Made by a program: the position numbers and the translations under genes. Source: Bacteroidales bacterium (GTDB lineage Bacteria; Bacteroidota; Bacteroidia; Bacteroidales; UBA12077). Taken from it: a stretch of DNA of 64,000 nt. The DNA lies in contig JAGXLL010000002.1 in the NCBI GenBank assembly GCA_018334675.1, forward strand, positions 29,205 through 93,204, in the 5' to 3' direction. This document shows, in pieces, positions 46,876 to 55,400 of this stretch. Positions within the stretch are counted from its first letter, which is position 1. Every line of letters begins with the position of its first letter. The notes below the pieces were generated by a model. It was not told the DNA's origin. It was given only the letters and a program-made list of their open reading frames with translations, and did no database searches.

Positions 46876-46904
46876 TACAACTAAATCACGGTTTGATTCG
46901 TCTA
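46876..46904 (+). promoter_or_regulatory. Putative ECF-sigma promoter (TACAACT-N16-CGTCTA) for the lipoprotein-sigma-anti-sigma operon
   Basis: AAC/CGT ECF-type boxes; the motif recurs before three more genes of the cluster. Confidence 0.6.
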
Positions 46905-46923: not shown

Positions 46924-47709
46924 ATGATAATCATGAAACGATATCTAATGCTGACTTTCATTGCATTTATCCTGGCAGGGTTATCTTCCTGCACCGAGGA
47001 TGAATTCATTGAACCGGCAACCGTAGATCTAAAGATCACGATGACCCATACCGAGCCCTTCGACGATCCCGGAGGTGGCCCACCCTTTGACGATGAGCTG
47101 GAGTTTTCCACGGGAAAACTGCAGCTGAGCTCCCTGGAGTTTGAGGGGGAAAGGGAAAACAATGACAGCCACTACTTCTCCAGGGACTTCTCCGAAGTAT
47201 TGGTGGCCGATCTGAGCGAAGGGGAGCTGAATCAGTCGGTGAGCTTCGACATACCCCAGGGCAGCTATAACCACATCCGGCTGAAACTGCATACTTGTGC
47301 GACCGACAGTTGTGCCGGCTTGGTTTTCCGGGGCAGATGGGAACAGGACGATGACGATGACGACGAGGATGATGGCACCAGCAAAAAACGGGGTCTTATC
47401 CCCGGTGATCCCGAAGAACTGCCCATTGAGCTTAATTTCTTTCAGCAGGCCGAGACCATCCCCCTGACACTTAAAACCCAGGACAACCAACAACAAATAC
47501 TGATCGAACAGGACAACTGGGATACCCTGGAGATCACCATCGACCTGGCCCATATGTTCCGTTATATCAACCCGGCTAAATTGGGGCAGGCCCAGGTTCA
47601 TGGCATCGGTAATCAAAGAAGAATCATTATTTCAGCCAATCATAACACGGAAATATATTACAGCCTGATGGAAAGGGTGGAAAGATCCATCCAGGCTGTC
47701 ATCAAATAA
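46924..47709 (+). CDS. Hypothetical surface lipoprotein (family A, copy 1)
   Basis: Lipobox LSSC followed by acidic TEDE; paralog of 50888-51610. Confidence 0.8.
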   Translation: MIIMKRYLMLTFIAFILAGLSSCTEDEFIEPATVDLKITMTHTEPFDDPGGGPPFDDELEFSTGKLQLSSLEFEGERENNDSHYFSRDFSEVLVADLSEGELNQSVSFDIPQGSYNHIRLKLHTCATDSCAGLVFRGRWEQDDDDDDEDDGTSKKRGLIPGDPEELPIELNFFQQAETIPLTLKTQDNQQQILIEQDNWDTLEITIDLAHMFRYINPAKLGQAQVHGIGNQRRIIISANHNTEIYYSLMERVERSIQAVIK

Positions 47710-47720
47710 ACCAATCATTC

Positions 47721-48266
47721 ATGGGGGAACGGGAATTGTACAGCGACGCTGAACTGGTTCAGGGTTGTAAAAACAATAATCGCAAATACCAGGAATTGCT
47801 GTACCGCAAATATGCCAAAAAGATGTACGGCATTTGCCTGAGTTACGCCACAGACCGGTCGATGGCCCAGGATATGCTGCAGGATGGTTTCATCAAGGTC
47901 TTCAAAAAGATCGATACCTTCCGCGAGCAGGGATCCCTGGAAGGATGGGTGCGGCGGATCATCACGAACACAGCCCTGGATTACATGAGACAGAAATCAA
48001 GAACCTTCGACTTCATCGATCACAATCAGGAGGTGGAGGAGCAGCAACTGGACAACAGCATCATGGAAAAAATCAACAGCGACGGACTTTTCAGGATCAT
48101 TGAGCAACTGCCCCAGGGCGCACGAATGGTATTCAACCTTTATGCAGTGGAAGGATATACCCATAAAGAGATCGCAGATAAACTGGAGATCACCGAGGGT
48201 ACTTCCAAATCGCAGTTTAAGCGGGCACGGGCTCTGTTAAAAAATTTGATCCAAGATCTGATATAA
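47721..48266 (+). CDS. ECF RNA polymerase sigma factor
   Basis: AQDMLQDGFIKVF, GSLEGWVRRI, EGYTHKEIA..L.ITEGTSKSQ. Confidence 0.95.
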   Translation: MGERELYSDAELVQGCKNNNRKYQELLYRKYAKKMYGICLSYATDRSMAQDMLQDGFIKVFKKIDTFREQGSLEGWVRRIITNTALDYMRQKSRTFDFIDHNQEVEEQQLDNSIMEKINSDGLFRIIEQLPQGARMVFNLYAVEGYTHKEIADKLEITEGTSKSQFKRARALLKNLIQDLI

Positions 48267-48270
48267 TACA

Positions 48271-49725
48271 ATGGACAACCAGGCATTTCATAGATGGTAT
48301 AAGCGGCTGATCGAAGATCCGCCCCAGGCTCCTCCCGAGATCGTTTGGGAGCACATCAGCCTGGAGCTGGACCGGGAGTTCTATGACTGGTACCGCACGA
48401 CATTGGAAGAGGGTGCTCCTGTGCCGCCTGCAGCCGTCTGGGATAACATCGAGGACAACCTGGACAGCGGGCTGCATCAATGGTACCAAACCTCCATCGA
48501 AGAACCCACCGAGGAACCGCCGCAGGAAGTTTGGAGCAACATACAGGACCAACTGGACATCGACGACACCTGGGTCGGTATCTCCCGGGAATTGGACCGC
48601 AAATGGAAAAAACGCACCCGGCAGCTTGTATATGCCCTGGCAGCAGCTGTGCTGTTGCTCTTTGCGCTTCAGATCTTCCTGCCCACCAGCGAGCATTCAC
48701 CCTTCAGAGAATCCACCACCCCGGTGGCACAGGAAGAAAAGCCGCAGCCGGATAAGAAACAGGAAGAACAAGCCACGCAAGAACCCGGAGAGAAACAGCA
48801 GGAACCCATCCCGCAAACTCCTTCAGCTGACCAGAGGGAGAGGAAAGAAAGGCTGGCCATGGGCAAAGATCAATCCGCCACAGCCGATAGCCGGGAATCG
48901 GAAAAGGAAGAAAAAACACAGGAAAGAAAAGAAACGGACCGGAGCGAAGGATTAGAAAGGCTGGCCGACCGCTCATCTATGACATTGGCAAAAGCCGATC
49001 CCACACAAATACAACTGAATGTTCAAACGAATGAACAGTTGGCTTCCATGCCGGAAACCGGTATCTCGGTATCTCAAACACGGGAGGATAAGGAACAGCC
49101 CGGCCAGGTGCGATACTATGCTGGAATAAGCGGGGAAGTAGGCAACTCCTGGTTGCTGAGCAACAAGACCATATACAGCATCCGGAAATCGCCTTACAGC
49201 TCGGCCTCACCCGAGGTGGGCAAATCCTATGGCATCATGGGTGGCGCCTCGCTGAACGATCATTTTGATGTGCAGGCTGAGGCCCTGTTCACCAGCGAGA
49301 CAGGCCAGAAATATCGTGAATACACCAACGGACAGGTTCTCCACAACCAGATCCTTCTGAATTATACCTCCCTGAAGATCACCGGACGCTACAAGATCTT
49401 TGGCTCCAGCTTCCAGCTTCCCGTTTCCCATCACCTGGTGTTGGGCACCTATGGCAGCTATCTGAAAAATGCCCAACAACAAACCGACGGGCAAACCAAA
49501 AACATCAAGGGCGCTTATAAAAACTACAACCTGGGAGTCGTTGTCGGTTACGAACTGGACACCCATATCGCCCCGAATTACAGCCTTTCGGCCGGCCTGC
49601 GCTTCAACCCGGGCTTTATAAATATCTACGAGGGTACTTCCATGCTCCCTGCACAGTTTAACAAGACCTACAGCTCCTCGGTGAACATCAACATCGCCCT
49701 GAAATACAACCTCTCCTCACAATAA
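48271..49725 (+). CDS. Putative dual-membrane-spanning anti-sigma factor (N-terminal repeats, TM, disordered linker, OM beta-barrel)
   Basis: Starts 4 nt after the ECF gene; 3x 31-aa PP..VW.nI...LD repeats, one TM, E/Q/K/P-rich linker, C-terminal barrel ending in NIALKYNL. Confidence 0.75.
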   Translation: MDNQAFHRWYKRLIEDPPQAPPEIVWEHISLELDREFYDWYRTTLEEGAPVPPAAVWDNIEDNLDSGLHQWYQTSIEEPTEEPPQEVWSNIQDQLDIDDTWVGISRELDRKWKKRTRQLVYALAAAVLLLFALQIFLPTSEHSPFRESTTPVAQEEKPQPDKKQEEQATQEPGEKQQEPIPQTPSADQRERKERLAMGKDQSATADSRESEKEEKTQERKETDRSEGLERLADRSSMTLAKADPTQIQLNVQTNEQLASMPETGISVSQTREDKEQPGQVRYYAGISGEVGNSWLLSNKTIYSIRKSPYSSASPEVGKSYGIMGGASLNDHFDVQAEALFTSETGQKYREYTNGQVLHNQILLNYTSLKITGRYKIFGSSFQLPVSHHLVLGTYGSYLKNAQQQTDGQTKNIKGAYKNYNLGVVVGYELDTHIAPNYSLSAGLRFNPGFINIYEGTSMLPAQFNKTYSSSVNINIALKYNLSSQ

Positions 49726-49746
49726 AAAAAATTTTCTCTCCCCCCT

Positions 49747-49776
49747 TTCCCACCTTCTGGTCCCTGGTTTCGTCTT
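49747..49776 (+). promoter_or_regulatory. Putative ECF promoter (TTCCCACC-N16-CGTCTT)
   Basis: Same boxes and spacing as at 51667-51696. Confidence 0.6.
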
Positions 49777-49806
49777 AGAAGCAAACAAACCAAAAAACCG
49801 ATTATC

Positions 49807-50736
49807 ATGAAAACCAAAATCACCTTAATCATTGCTCTTCTCGTATCTCTTGGCGCCTTCATGGGATGCGAAGAAGACGATGCAGGGCAAACCGGAACGC
49901 TGGCCCTTTCCCTTACCGATGCCCCCATCGACGACACCAGTGTAACCGGTGTATGGGTCACGATCACCGGCATTCAATACCATATGCAGGACAGTGCCTG
50001 GAAAACCTTTGAAGGCTTCCAGGGTCCGCAAAAATTCAACCTGCTGGCCCTGACCGACAGCATCAGCGAGGTGCTGGGTGCGGCTCAGATCGAAGCCGGA
50101 CAATACAACCAGCTGCGTTTCATGCTCGACGCCCCTGAAAAAGGCCAGGGTCCGCCAACCAGCCCCGGCTGCTACATAGAATTTGATGGGGGAGAAACCC
50201 AACCCATGTTTGTCCCCAGCGGCGGACAAACGGGTTACAAAGCCGTGGGCGCCTTCCGTGTTCCTTCCAATGGTACCGTTGAAGTGACGGCCGATTTCGA
50301 TGCCCGCAAATCCGTTCGCGAGACAGGCGGCATGCGGGAACATTACATCCTTCAGCCTACCATACGCCTTGTTGTGAATAACCAGGCCGGCAGCATAGCG
50401 GGTGAAGTAACCCCCTTACCCTCCGACGGCAGCAACATCGCCGTCTATGCCTATGAAGACAATGCTTATACTTCTGATGAAGCAGCCGACCCGGCCGAAG
50501 GAGAAACCCGCTTCCCCAATGCCGTAACTTCGGATGTGGTAGGGGATAATGACTGCAACCACTCACAGAAATGTTACCACCTGTACTATCTCGCTCCTAT
50601 AACTTACGACCTGGTGGTGGTAAGAACCCTGGACGGGGAATTCCAGGAAGTACTGGGTATCTCTGAAGATGTTGCGGTAGAAAGCAAAAAAAATACCGGT
50701 CACCCCATTGACCTGAATGATCTTTCCTCCCTGTAA
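49807..50736 (+). CDS. DUF4382-domain lipoprotein (family B, copy 1)
   Basis: Lipobox FMGC-EEDD, LSLTDAP, FNLL.L, G.YNQLRF, VPSG.QTG, DFDARKSV, YILQP. Confidence 0.85.
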   Translation: MKTKITLIIALLVSLGAFMGCEEDDAGQTGTLALSLTDAPIDDTSVTGVWVTITGIQYHMQDSAWKTFEGFQGPQKFNLLALTDSISEVLGAAQIEAGQYNQLRFMLDAPEKGQGPPTSPGCYIEFDGGETQPMFVPSGGQTGYKAVGAFRVPSNGTVEVTADFDARKSVRETGGMREHYILQPTIRLVVNNQAGSIAGEVTPLPSDGSNIAVYAYEDNAYTSDEAADPAEGETRFPNAVTSDVVGDNDCNHSQKCYHLYYLAPITYDLVVVRTLDGEFQEVLGISEDVAVESKKNTGHPIDLNDLSSL

Positions 50737-50826: not shown

Positions 50827-50854
50827 TACAACTTATTGCCTCAAACCCCGTATA
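50827..50854 (+). promoter_or_regulatory. Putative ECF promoter (TACAACT-N15-CGTATA)
   Basis: Shares TACAACT and CGT.TA with 46876-46904. Confidence 0.5.
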
Positions 50855-50887: not shown

Positions 50888-51610
50888 ATGTCTCGTTTGA
50901 TCATACTATCCCTGTTGCTGGCGGTGATTACTTACTTCAACCATGCCGGCACCGATAAAACGCCCCTCAGGGAACCTTCCCTGATCAAACTCAGCATGCA
51001 CCTCACCCAAACCCGGGCCAACCCAGCCGCATCATCTCAGGATCTCTCCCGCATCACATTTCAAAACGGCATCTTATCCCTTTCTTCAGTCGAATTTTTA
51101 GGATCGCCCCACAACACCACCGATTTTCATTTTACCTCCTCCCTCCACAGCCAATACCAATTGCAGCCTGAAAAAAGCCCGCTTCCCTTATTGGAATTTG
51201 ACGTACCTGCCGGCAGGTACCGATCGGCGAAGATCATCCTCCATGCCAACAGCCGGGACAGCCTTCCTGCCATGACAGTCCATGCCCGGTGGCAAAAAAA
51301 GGACGGGCCCAAACCGATCGACATCCATATCCGGCTGTTCGATCTGCCCCGGATCCTTTCCCTGGAAGTCAAACCGGAAGGAAAGGAGAGGTCCCTGATG
51401 TTTCCCCGGCAGGGTTTCTCCAATCTACAGATCCGGATCGACCCCATGCAACTCTTCGACCCAGCTGTGATGGATCAGCTGCAGGAGGCAAAAATGCAGG
51501 ATACGCCCACCGGCCGTAAGGTGATCCTTTCACGACATCACAACCCCCACATACACGACCGCCTGACAGAAAATATGCACGAATCCATCCGGGCGGTCCT
51601 GCAGCGGTGA
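50888..51610 (+). CDS. Hypothetical exported protein (family A, copy 2; no lipobox)
   Basis: LSLSSVEF.G, FDVPAGRY, VILSRHHNPHI...SIRAVL align with 46924-47709. Confidence 0.7.
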   Translation: MSRLIILSLLLAVITYFNHAGTDKTPLREPSLIKLSMHLTQTRANPAASSQDLSRITFQNGILSLSSVEFLGSPHNTTDFHFTSSLHSQYQLQPEKSPLPLLEFDVPAGRYRSAKIILHANSRDSLPAMTVHARWQKKDGPKPIDIHIRLFDLPRILSLEVKPEGKERSLMFPRQGFSNLQIRIDPMQLFDPAVMDQLQEAKMQDTPTGRKVILSRHHNPHIHDRLTENMHESIRAVLQR

Positions 51611-51666
51611 ATCCATGCGGATTGAGCTCCCCGGCACCAGATTTTTCGGCAAAACTTTCCTTTTCA

Positions 51667-51696
51667 TTCCCACCCTTTTTGTGAAACCTACGTCTT
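51667..51696 (+). promoter_or_regulatory. Putative ECF promoter (TTCCCACC-N16-CGTCTT)
   Basis: Boxes conserved with 49747-49776 while the spacer is diverged. Confidence 0.6.
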
Positions 51697-51732
51697 TATT
51701 ACAAATACTTCAAACCCCAAAATCATTGGACC

Positions 51733-52629
51733 ATGAAAACACGAATTTTTATTTTAATCGTACTGATGATTCCCTTCGCCCTTTTTACCGGATGCGAGGA
51801 GGAAAAAAGCGAAACAGGCACCCTGGATCTTTCCCTGACCGATGCCCCCATTGATCAACAAGATGTGACAGGAGTATATATCACCATCAACGGCCTGGAA
51901 TATCACAAGCAGAATAACGACTGGGCTACCTTCGAAGAATACGGGGAAGCCAAAAAGTTCAACCTGTTGGAATTGACCGATGGCATGAGCGAAATGCTGG
52001 GATCCTTCGAGATGGAAGCCGGACAGTATAACCAGTTGCGTTTTATGCTGGAGGCTCCGGTAAGAGGTGAATCTACCCCATCCAATGCAGGTTGTTACCT
52101 TGAATTTGAAGGTGGAGAAACCGAGCCTCTTTTCGTACCCAGCGCAGGCAACACAGGCTACAAGGCGGTAGGTGCCTTTACCGTTCCCTCCAATGGAACT
52201 GTTGAGCTGACCGCAGATTTCGATGCCCGCAAGTCTGTCGTTGAAACAGGAACAGCCGGGATGTATATTCTTCAGCCCACCATCCGTCTGATCGTCAACA
52301 ATGAGGCTGGCAGCATCGCCGGCAGCATCAGCAATTTCCCCACCGATGGCAGCAATATCATTGTCTATGCCTACGAAGATGGAGATTATTCCGATACGGA
52401 AGCAGCCGATCCCGAGGCCGAAGAAAGCCGGTTCCCCAATGCCGTCACCAGCGATATAGCAGATGAGCAAAACAGTTATAAACTGCATTACCTGGCCCCG
52501 ATGAACTATGACCTGGTCGTTGTAAGGTCTCTGGACGGGCAGTTCCAGGAAGTATTACAGGTAGTAGAAGATGTTGCGGTGGAAAGCAAAGAGACCACAC
52601 CGCAGCCCATCGATCTTTCCACCCAATAG
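51733..52629 (+). CDS. DUF4382-domain lipoprotein (family B, copy 2)
   Basis: Lipobox FTGC-EEEK; closely collinear with 49807-50736. Confidence 0.85.
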   Translation: MKTRIFILIVLMIPFALFTGCEEEKSETGTLDLSLTDAPIDQQDVTGVYITINGLEYHKQNNDWATFEEYGEAKKFNLLELTDGMSEMLGSFEMEAGQYNQLRFMLEAPVRGESTPSNAGCYLEFEGGETEPLFVPSAGNTGYKAVGAFTVPSNGTVELTADFDARKSVVETGTAGMYILQPTIRLIVNNEAGSIAGSISNFPTDGSNIIVYAYEDGDYSDTEAADPEAEESRFPNAVTSDIADEQNSYKLHYLAPMNYDLVVVRSLDGQFQEVLQVVEDVAVESKETTPQPIDLSTQ

Positions 52630-53672: not shown

Positions 53673-55400
53673 ATGAAAAAAATCTACATCCTCTTCCTGT
53701 CCTTTCTTTTCACTGCAACCGCCTGGAGCCAGTCACCTGAAAAAATGAGCTATCAGGCTGTCATCAGGGATTCAGATGAAAACCTGGCTACCAATCAAAC
53801 GGTAGGCATCCAGATCAGTATTTTACAAGGCTCTGCCAGCGGCACCGCCGTATATGTCGAAACACAACAGCCTGCTACCAATGACAACGGACTGGTAACG
53901 CTGGAAATCGGAACCGGCACAGTCGTCTCAGGAGATTTCGCATCCATTGACTGGGCTGACGGACCCTATTTCCTGAAAACCGAAACCGATCCTGCAGGGG
54001 GAAGCAGCTACAGCACCTCCGGAACCTGCGAGCTGGTGAGCGTGCCCTTTGCCCTGTATGCTCAAAATGCCGGAAATGTTTTTTCCGGCGAACACAATGA
54101 CCTGACTTTCAATGGAACGGGACAATCTGTGTTCATCGGTAAGGGAGCAGGGACCCATGACGACCTGTCGGACAACCAGAACGTGTTTACCGGCGATTCC
54201 ACAGGGTTCCAAAACACCGACGGACATAAGAATACTGCCCTCGGCTTCGCAGCATTTTTCTCCAATACAGGAGGGTATGGCAATACCGCCACCGGGTATA
54301 GATCACTATACTACAACAGCAACGGCAACTACAACATTGCCAGCGGTTACAACTCCATGTACAGCAATACTTCTGGCAATTACAACATCGCCATTGGTGG
54401 CGAGGCATTATTCTACAATACCGTCCGAAGTGGTCTGGTAGCCGTGGGACACGAAGCTTTGCATAAAAATGCGCAAACCATCTCCGATGCCAATGACGGC
54501 GTCAACAATACTGCGGTAGGCTACCGGGCGCTGCACAATAACACGGTAGGATTCAGCAATACAGGCATCGGTAACCAGTCATTAATCAATAACACGGAAG
54601 GTGGAAGCAACACAGCTGTGGGAAATAAAACCTTATTCTCCAATACTACCGGCAGCATCAACACGGCCGTGGGAAATGATGCCATGTTGTACAATACCTC
54701 TGGATATTCCAACGCGGCCATGGGGCACAATGCTTTATTTGCCAATACCACCGGTACTCATAACACAGCGATCGGTTGCCGGACTCTAAAGAACAATACT
54801 ACCGGAAGCAGAAACACCGCAGTGGGATACTATGCCGGCCCAACCAGCGGCAACGACAACCTGTTCAACACCGGTGCTTTTGGATATAATGCCACAGTAG
54901 CCACCAACAACACCATCCGCATTGGGGACAACAATATTACCTCGATATTCGGAGCCGTGGGATGGGGAAGCCCATCCGACGGCCGCTTCAAAACCAATGT
55001 CACGCCAGATGTACCCGGACTGGAGTTCATAACGAAACTGAAGCCCGTGACCTTCAACTGGGATCTGGATGCACTAAACGAATTCCAGGGTAAGGAGGAG
55101 GGGAATAAAAAAGATCCCAGAATAAAAAAGGCCCGGCGGAAGAAAGAACAAAAGGACTACACCGGCTTTGTGGCCCAGGAAGTGGAAAAAGCTGCAGAGG
55201 CCTGCGGGTATGATTTCAGCGCGGTGAGCAAACCGCCCAACGACAAATCCACTTATCACCTCACTTATTCCGAGTTTGTAGTGCCTCTGGTGAAAGCGGT
55301 TCAGGAACAACAAAAAGAAATAGAAAACCTGGAGAATAAAATGGCGGAACAGGATGAGCGCATAGAATCCCTAATCCGTGAAATAGAAAAGCTTCAATGA
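53673..55400 (+). CDS. Fibre/adhesin-like protein with beta-roll repeats and C-terminal peptidase S74 intramolecular chaperone
   Basis: PEKMSYQAVIR...SVPFALYA N-domain, about 14-aa NTAVG..AL..NT.G repeats, SDGRFKTNV, GFVAQEVE, LVKAVQEQQ coiled coil. Confidence 0.85.
   Translation: MKKIYILFLSFLFTATAWSQSPEKMSYQAVIRDSDENLATNQTVGIQISILQGSASGTAVYVETQQPATNDNGLVTLEIGTGTVVSGDFASIDWADGPYFLKTETDPAGGSSYSTSGTCELVSVPFALYAQNAGNVFSGEHNDLTFNGTGQSVFIGKGAGTHDDLSDNQNVFTGDSTGFQNTDGHKNTALGFAAFFSNTGGYGNTATGYRSLYYNSNGNYNIASGYNSMYSNTSGNYNIAIGGEALFYNTVRSGLVAVGHEALHKNAQTISDANDGVNNTAVGYRALHNNTVGFSNTGIGNQSLINNTEGGSNTAVGNKTLFSNTTGSINTAVGNDAMLYNTSGYSNAAMGHNALFANTTGTHNTAIGCRTLKNNTTGSRNTAVGYYAGPTSGNDNLFNTGAFGYNATVATNNTIRIGDNNITSIFGAVGWGSPSDGRFKTNVTPDVPGLEFITKLKPVTFNWDLDALNEFQGKEEGNKKDPRIKKARRKKEQKDYTGFVAQEVEKAAEACGYDFSAVSKPPNDKSTYHLTYSEFVVPLVKAVQEQQKEIENLENKMAEQDERIESLIREIEKLQ

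Follow-up and report, generated by a model that had tools for sequence, protein, structure and literature searches.

The window analysed here is a stretch of 64,000 nucleotides (nt) from a Bacteroidales bacterium (lineage UBA12077; assembly GCA_018334675.1, contig JAGXLL010000002.1, positions 29,205 to 93,204 of the forward strand), and within it we focus on a group of genes that encode, in order, a lipoprotein without an assigned family (here called lipoX), an extracytoplasmic function (ECF) sigma factor, a 484-residue protein that is very probably an anti-sigma factor of the Dma type, and a lipoprotein of the DUF4382 family. The start codon of the anti-sigma gene (48271-49725) lies 4 nt past the stop codon of the sigma gene, its presumed cognate partner. 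This anti-sigma factor carries at its N-terminus three tandem units of 31 residues, each a predicted sigma-binding module, where most of its relatives carry a single one.

An earlier note on this DNA, made from the sequence alone, had described the repeats as being followed by a basic patch, one transmembrane helix, a long low-complexity linker and a C-terminal beta-barrel-like domain, and all of these parts were borne out by sequence, composition, AlphaFold2 (AF2) modelling and fold comparison. The basic patch reads DRKWKKRTRQ and precedes the hydrophobic helix. The linker region is rich in glutamate and glutamine (23 and 18 occurrences, respectively, among the 149 residues 142-290, with S, T, P, R, A and K occurring 11-13 times each), and its predicted local distance difference test (pLDDT) score is below 50 for most of residues 138-238, whereas the beta domain (281-480) is modelled at a pLDDT above 90. 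The closest structure to this domain by Foldseek is OmpA (E 1.9e-8, template modelling (TM) score by target 0.64), an eight-stranded outer-membrane barrel, followed by OmpW, Ail, OprG, NspA and OmpX; against the Pfam family OMP_b-brl_2 (PF13568) it scores 26.4 bits (E 8.5e-6), just below the cut-off of 27, and in the genome scan 28.7 bits, above that cut-off, while a search of the ESM Atlas returned only clusters labelled 'Bacteroidota OMP_b-brl_2'. The barrel would thus sit in the outer membrane and the disordered tether would cross the periplasm, with the helix passing through the inner membrane and the N-terminal 117 residues lying in the cytoplasm.

In sequence, the N-terminal region resembles none of the anti-sigma domains with which it was compared. 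The anti-sigma families of Pfam gave zero matches to it at E ≤ 0.1, and the NCBIfam 'antisigma' model NF052375 reached 16 bits with the protein (E 0.008) against a cut-off of 100. A class I domain comprises some 80-90 residues in four helices; for this zinc-binding or RseA-like class we found neither an ASD or zf-HC2 profile match nor an HxxxCxxC motif, and the absence of cysteine from residues 1-115 makes a zinc motif impossible. Compared with the sequences in the Protein Data Bank (PDB), the N-terminal 115 residues have no relative (top E 2.5). Membership of the Dma/Reo group is assigned from the architecture of the protein and its gene context.

Compared in pairs, the three in-register units (QAFHRWYKRLIEDPPQAPPEIVWEHISLELD, REFYDWYRTTLEEGAPVPPAAVWDNIEDNLD and SGLHQWYQTSIEEPTEEPPQEVWSNIQDQLD) are identical at 11-14 of their 31 residues and at 47-53 of their 93 nt. 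The BLOSUM62 score of the region against itself is 124 at an offset of 31 and 54 at an offset of 62, while shuffling the N-terminal 110 residues 2000 times never gave more than 24 at any offset, so that no shuffle matched the observed value; the three tandem units previously placed at residues 4-96 (nt 48280-48558) are thereby confirmed, with the tryptophans W9/W40/W71 and W26/W57/W88 located exactly as claimed. Each module consists of two helices, with the core ..WY....E.....PP...W..I...LD kept in every repeat, and in the AF2 model of the monomer a single long helix (54-77) runs from the second half of repeat 2 into repeat 3, merging the second helix of the former with the first helix of the latter. 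Repeat 3 is the unit that aligns with the lone module of most relatives. The stretch TWVGISRELD (residues 100-109), which had been read as a partial fourth unit, is real, but it matches the helix that single-copy relatives also hold once, past their module (consensus ...LD...VW......L). At the DNA level, Tandem Repeats Finder detected no repeat between 48100 and 49900 save two trivial arrays of 7-8 nt, which indicates that the triplication is old and neither a product of recent slippage nor an assembly artefact.

We followed the number of modules across relatives with a repeat profile that was iterated on the recovered proteins and applied to 174 of them (27 from one search and the best 150 of 821 representatives, with overlaps). 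One module was found in 131 proteins, two in four, three in 17 and four in six; the 16 proteins in which no module was recognisable are fragments or have diverged N-termini. The genome loci gave the same picture, with one module in 26 of 31 anti-sigma genes and three modules in the other five. A single module is therefore the norm in the family, and the possibility raised in the earlier note that multi-copy repeats might prove to be that norm falls away. The multi-copy form is neither unique to this gene nor exceptional among its closest relatives. In a FastTree phylogeny of the C-terminal 215 residues (184 rows, a further 21 having been dropped as fragments or for want of a repeat match), the clade of the window comprises 25 rows, every one of them with two, three or four modules (local support 97), while the other six multi-copy rows are scattered over the tree. 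Six changes between one and multiple modules are needed on this tree, at least four of them forced by well-supported branches, compared with a mean of 28.9 when the labels are shuffled (0 of 500 shuffles needed as few as six). Multiple modules are the norm in the clade of the window and have arisen repeatedly elsewhere. We also observed that the element of the second helix alone (…LDI..VW…) is repeated two or three times in the loci L011 (4016-5389), L023 (4010-5443) and L025 (3971-5350) and in the proteins P0133 and P0158.

The individual repeats bear signs of independent maintenance. Among ten three-copy orthologues, repeats at the same position share identities of 0.65, 0.52 and 0.56 (repeats 1-3, respectively), as opposed to 0.46 for repeats at different positions within a protein and 0.44 for those at different positions between proteins, which implies that the triplication predates the clade and that the copies evolve independently. 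The ratio of non-synonymous to synonymous differences per site (pN/pS), computed over six sequences (that of the window and five relatives), is 0.345, 0.456 and 0.356 for repeats 1, 2 and 3, close to that of the transmembrane helix (0.423), and lies between those of the barrel (0.282) and the linker (0.767), the least constrained part of the protein; judged by these ratios, each repeat is under purifying selection. Inserts occur between repeats 2 and 3, of 14 residues in L006, P0011 and P0012 and of about 40 residues, rich in glutamine, in P0013, and the toleration of such low-complexity inserts indicates that the spacing of the modules is not fixed and fits modules carried on flexible connectors.

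The earlier note had proposed that one molecule could sequester several sigma factors, and a predicted complex of three copies of the sigma factor with the anti-sigma fragment 1-115 gives this proposal support, though not proof of multivalent sequestration. The interaction prediction score from aligned errors (ipSAE) of this 3:1 model is 0.69 (0.63, 0.69 and 0.70 in the separate runs), compared with 0.00 for the best of three controls; contacts agree between runs to at least 91%, and the pLDDT of the partner is at least 65. This outcome probably does not stem from a solved anti-sigma structure known to the predictor, given that no PDB sequence is related to the N-terminal 115 residues. In the best run the three sigma copies are predicted to bind through identical residues (19-62 in the sigma-2 domain, and 110-127 and 139-174, the latter in sigma-4). 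Copy 2 contacts residues 21-29 of the anti-sigma factor, in repeat 1, and copy 3 contacts residues 52-63, in repeat 2, in a register shifted by 31, such that the two tryptophans met by residue 28 of the sigma factor, W26 for copy 2 and W57 for copy 3, are separated by exactly one period. The remaining copy would sit on repeat 3: on the anti-sigma side, the confident interface covers residues 3-99, including 67-99 of repeat 3, and the post-module helix (100-109) lies outside it. The contacts on repeats 1 and 2 are thus named by the model, while that on repeat 3 is presumed.

The features of the locus are collected in Table 1.

Table 1. Features of the sigma/anti-sigma locus and its surroundings, in coordinates of the window.
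Feature	Coordinates	Strand	Basis
ECF-type promoter-like site, ACAAC-N17-CGTCT	46877..46903	+	Sequence; 21 nt from motif to lipoX ATG
lipoX, 261-residue lipoprotein without assigned family, directly upstream of the sigma gene	46924..47709	+	Lipobox-like N-terminus
ECF sigma factor, 181 residues, presumed cognate partner	47721..48266	+	Pfam, NCBIfam, synteny
Dma-type anti-sigma factor (very probable), 484 residues	48271..49725	+	Open reading frame; Pfam, AF2, Foldseek
Repeat 1, residues 4-34, predicted sigma-binding module	48280..48372	+	Self-comparison, repeat profile, complex model
Repeat 2, residues 35-65, predicted sigma-binding module	48373..48465	+	Self-comparison, repeat profile, complex model
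Repeat 3, residues 66-96, predicted sigma-binding module	48466..48558	+	Self-comparison, repeat profile, complex model
Post-module helix (TWVGISRELD) and basic patch, residues 97-117	48559..48621	+	Sequence
Single transmembrane helix, about residues 118-137	48622..48681	+	Hydrophobic stretch after basic patch; AF2 helix 97-136
Disordered E/Q/S/T/P-rich linker, about residues 138-278 (about 140 residues)	48682..49104	+	AF2 pLDDT, composition, pN/pS
C-terminal 8-stranded outer-membrane beta-barrel, residues 279-484	49105..49722	+	Pfam PF13568, AF2, Foldseek
DUF4382 lipoprotein, downstream neighbour	49807..50736	+	Pfam DUF4382, E 2.7e-31
Duplicated pair: lipoX2 (50888-51610) and second DUF4382 gene (51733-52629)	50888..52629	+	Open reading frames, Pfam, comparison of loci

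The sigma factor itself is readily recognised, with Pfam matches to Sigma70_r2 (E 1.6e-18) and Sigma70_r4_2 (E 5e-15) and a score of 100 bits, above the cut-off, against the NCBIfam model sigma70-ECF; its scores against the Bacteroidota-specific models of NCBIfam fall below their cut-offs (97.3 against 126.4 for TIGR02985, 92.2 against 130 for NF058625). Comparison with 32 related loci, drawn from species-representative genomes of Bacteroidales, Marinilabiliales and other Bacteroidota (mostly metagenome-assembled genomes), shows the arrangement to be widely kept. Among the 31 loci that contain an anti-sigma open reading frame, a sigma gene (47-88% identity) lies directly upstream of it in every case, and this sigma gene is in turn preceded by a lipoX homologue in 27, with three of the remaining four sequences beginning at the sigma gene. 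A DUF4382 homologue follows downstream in 17 of the 31, and seven of the other 14 sequences stop at the anti-sigma gene or within about 340 bases of it. The duplicated arrangement of lipoX-like and DUF4382 genes that is found in the window also occurs in the related locus L006.

The lipoX gene and its copy lipoX2 represent a conserved lipoprotein family that has no Pfam family of its own and nearly always forms the first gene of the sigma/anti-sigma operon. Against Pfam, lipoX matches LPAM_1 weakly (E 0.053, with no stretch passing alone) and DUF4382 weakly (E 0.043); its AF2 model is all-beta (pLDDT 86), and comparison of that model with the folds in the PDB returned none at E ≤ 1e-3, the top match being MbnP (E 3.5e-3, TM score 0.37). 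An identification of lipoX with NigD, which would have tied the locus to the nigD2-das1-dma1 genes of Bacteroides thetaiotaomicron, was not adopted, as none of 27 members of the lipoX family matches the NigD family of Pfam and the fold comparison gave no match. Farther downstream, at 53673-55400, lies an open reading frame of 575 residues with a signal-like N-terminus and many short N/T/G-rich repeats (…NTA.G…), which follows an open reading frame of 164 residues with a C-terminal sorting-like tail.

The promoter-like site ahead of lipoX has counterparts both in the window and in other genomes. A similar site (ACAAC-N16-CGTAT, 50828-50853) lies 34 nt ahead of lipoX2, and of 24 related loci, 22 have a site of the form AAC-N15-18-CGT[ACT] no more than 180 nt ahead of lipoX (consensus AACCTTTT...TCGTC), typically some 45-75 nt before the start codon (L005-L033), for which the chance rate of about 0.14 per locus is a rough estimate and not a shuffle control. 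Given this recurrence, the operon of lipoX, sigma and anti-sigma genes is probably autoregulated, and the presence of sites before both lipoX and lipoX2 suggests autoregulation together with a small regulon of lipoproteins. A different element is common to the upstream regions of both DUF4382 genes (49726-49806 and 51611-51732); it reads TTCCCACC, followed after about 17 nt by CGTCT, and may represent a second type of promoter with the same CGTC at a position resembling the -10 element.

Elsewhere in the same genome (3.09 Mb in 158 contigs), the triplicated protein has no second copy. The genome contains 14 ECF-like sigma matches, the cognate sigma factor included, and downstream of each of the three closest paralogues of the latter (45%, 37% and 36% identity) comes a separate candidate anti-sigma gene. 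Two of these pairs, on contigs C32 (L034 1928-3816) and C77 (L035 3-1389, minus strand), consist of a paralogous sigma factor (45% and 37% identity, respectively) followed by a transmembrane protein whose linker is disordered and whose C-terminus is a barrel, and each of these candidate anti-sigma proteins has one degenerate motif of the form PP..VW/AW..I/M...L. The genome therefore encodes three Dma-like systems, only one of which is triplicated.

The systems that most resemble this one are Dma1/Das1 (PMC10927553) and Dma2/Das2 (PMC13088901), which as described in those reports share with it a short N-terminus, here predicted to be cytoplasmic and to bind sigma, a single membrane-crossing helix, an extended tether without ordered structure and an eight-stranded OMP_b-brl_2 barrel, as well as a restriction to the Bacteroidota. 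According to the main text of PMC10927553, the first 40 residues of Dma1 of B. thetaiotaomicron suffice to pull down Das1, the C-terminal barrel is present in outer-membrane vesicles, and the spanning of both membranes was probed by fractionation or tagging; there too the anti-sigma gene adjoins the gene of an ECF sigma factor and a lipoprotein gene stands beside the pair, with nigD2 (BT_4719) and das1 (BT_4720) bearing consecutive locus tags. The main texts on Dma describe one N-terminal binding region (residues 1-40 being sufficient), in contrast to the threefold module here, and the flanking lipoproteins differ as well, those of our locus not being NigD by Pfam or by fold. Reo/EcfO, described as the orthologue in B. 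fragilis and P. vulgatus, is likewise presented (PMC13114119) as an anti-sigma factor that reaches from the cytoplasm to the cell surface and frees its ECF sigma factor on envelope or oxidative stress, the pair being auto-induced; its regulon as given there consists of nigD genes, whereas the conserved neighbours in our loci are DUF4382 and lipoX lipoproteins.

Among solved complexes, that of RseA with sigmaE (PDB 1or7, matched through the sigma factor) resembles the model, in which a single ECF sigma factor is predicted to be contacted at its sigma-2 and sigma-4 domains alike (residues 19-62 and 139-174). Class I anti-sigma factors such as RseA differ in having no sequence or Pfam relation to our protein, whose unit is a tandemly repeated module of 31 residues with two short helices and whose N-terminal 115 residues lack cysteine. 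In the class II anti-sigma peptides (CnrY, NepR) a minimal helical peptide holds the ECF sigma factor closed; to our knowledge, peptides of this type occur as single copies and without an outer-membrane domain.

The kind of protein has been known since 2024, and what seems new here is the tandem multiplication of its predicted sigma-binding module, which goes unmentioned in the main texts on Dma that were searched. The words 'repeat' and 'tandem' do not occur in the main text of PMC10927553, and that of PMC13088901 does not use 'motif' and uses 'repeat' once, in an unrelated sentence of its methods. The titles and abstracts listed on tandem repeats in anti-sigma factors, ECF stoichiometry, Dma1/Das1 and ECF21, the sigma group that partners Dma proteins, describe no tandem sigma-binding modules, which is not proof that none are in print.

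We place about half of our confidence in the reading that this is a Dma-type anti-sigma factor, co-transcribed with its ECF sigma factor, which holds up to three molecules of that cognate sigma and lets all of them go at once on its cleavage in response to outer-membrane stress, with the number of modules tuning buffering and burst size. Each module would, as in the predicted complex, clamp one sigma factor between sigma-2 and sigma-4, such that up to three could be held per anti-sigma molecule at the inner membrane. If the protein behaves as in the model published for Dma1, stress at the outer membrane would lead to proteolysis of the anti-sigma factor and free the stored sigma, which would then drive the AAC...CGTC promoter ahead of the lipoX, sigma and anti-sigma genes, and probably the neighbouring lipoprotein genes too. 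The number of modules, one to four among relatives, would set both buffering capacity and burst size, and the sharper threshold response that the earlier note envisaged may be a further consequence. In its boldest form, which we advance tentatively, the proposal would make this the first natural multivalent anti-sigma factor, carrying three sigma factors on three independent 31-residue clamps that are freed together, and the number of clamps (1-4, with at least four gains or losses in the Bacteroidota) an evolvable dial for buffering capacity, threshold and burst size.

Several points weigh against a threefold occupancy. The ipSAE value is the model's own confidence and no measurement, predictions of this sort readily lay copies onto repeated motifs, and the model, which was made at a single stoichiometry, is silent on affinity and on steric fit near the membrane. 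The mark by which such scores are read, reached by 116 of 157 solved complexes versus 2 of 215 mismatched pairs, was calibrated on single-chain pairs and so counts only roughly for three chains plus one with custom alignments. The pN/pS ratios are crude, synonymous divergence (dS) being saturated in most pairs, and kinship to Dma1 of B. thetaiotaomicron and Reo of B. fragilis was judged by architecture and context. Nor are the copies always intact, the first helix of the third module having no W-Y in the four-copy proteins P0007, P0008 and P0010. Finally, with 4 nt between their genes, sigma and anti-sigma factor are probably made in similar amounts, in which case three sites would stand mostly empty unless the sigma factor were in excess. 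This roughly equal synthesis, the lost W-Y, and the long helix across repeats 2 and 3 in the AF2 monomer, which could hinder independent binding, would all suit an anti-sigma factor that holds one sigma at a time, as would the 1:1 stoichiometry known from solved complexes of ECF sigma factors with their anti-sigma factors, sigmaE-RseA (1or7) among them. The modules would then be alternative or cooperative sites that raise local concentration and rebinding (avidity) and reduce leak at an unchanged stoichiometry. We consider such an arrangement unlikely, if the most serious of the alternatives, in view of the 3:1 model, which seats three sigma factors on the same interface with high internal agreement, of the inserts of 14 to about 40 residues tolerated between repeats, and of the similar conservation of all three.

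It is also conceivable that the extra modules serve different partners, such as a paralogous ECF sigma factor, a protease adaptor or an anti-anti-sigma factor, and so integrate several pathways. The number of ECF-like sigma matches in the genome leaves room for this, and the repeats have diverged to 35-45% identity and have position-specific consensus residues. The earlier note's suggestion that the repeats bind different ECF sigma factors nevertheless finds no support, since each of the closest paralogues has its own candidate anti-sigma gene, two of these encoding the same barrel architecture with a single motif; moreover, the core contact positions are retained in all three repeats and the model seats the cognate sigma on every one of them (on repeat 3 presumptively), and we regard different partners as improbable. 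Least probable in our estimation is a silent expansion in which only the membrane-proximal module works and repeats 1 and 2 are tolerated products of slippage or a spacer. Single-copy proteins do align with repeat 3, copy number drifts between two and four within the clade, and the first helix of the third module is degenerate in three four-copy relatives; yet repeats 1 and 2 are constrained about as strongly as the transmembrane helix and quite unlike the linker, repeat 1 is the most conserved of the three among orthologues, the triplication is old with no DNA-level repeat remaining, and at least two copies are kept in all 25 rows of the clade.

The usual view of anti-sigma factors is that they inhibit at a 1:1 ratio, a premise that also underlies models of ECF signalling and synthetic ECF circuits. 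If the reading of multiple occupancy is true, the sequestration capacity of each molecule would be tunable, which would affect leakiness, threshold and the pulse of sigma factor released per proteolytic event; and if the minimal sigma-binding peptide is a cassette of 31 residues that evolution has copied one to four times, this would change the default 1:1 picture. Should the extra copies not bind simultaneously, the tandem modules would still be an elaboration, specific to one lineage and well conserved there, of a protein family that was discovered only recently. For that family as a whole, the predicted sigma-binding element is narrowed to some 30 residues that bear a clear motif, which should make mutagenesis and structures of Dma1 and Reo in gut Bacteroides easier to pursue.

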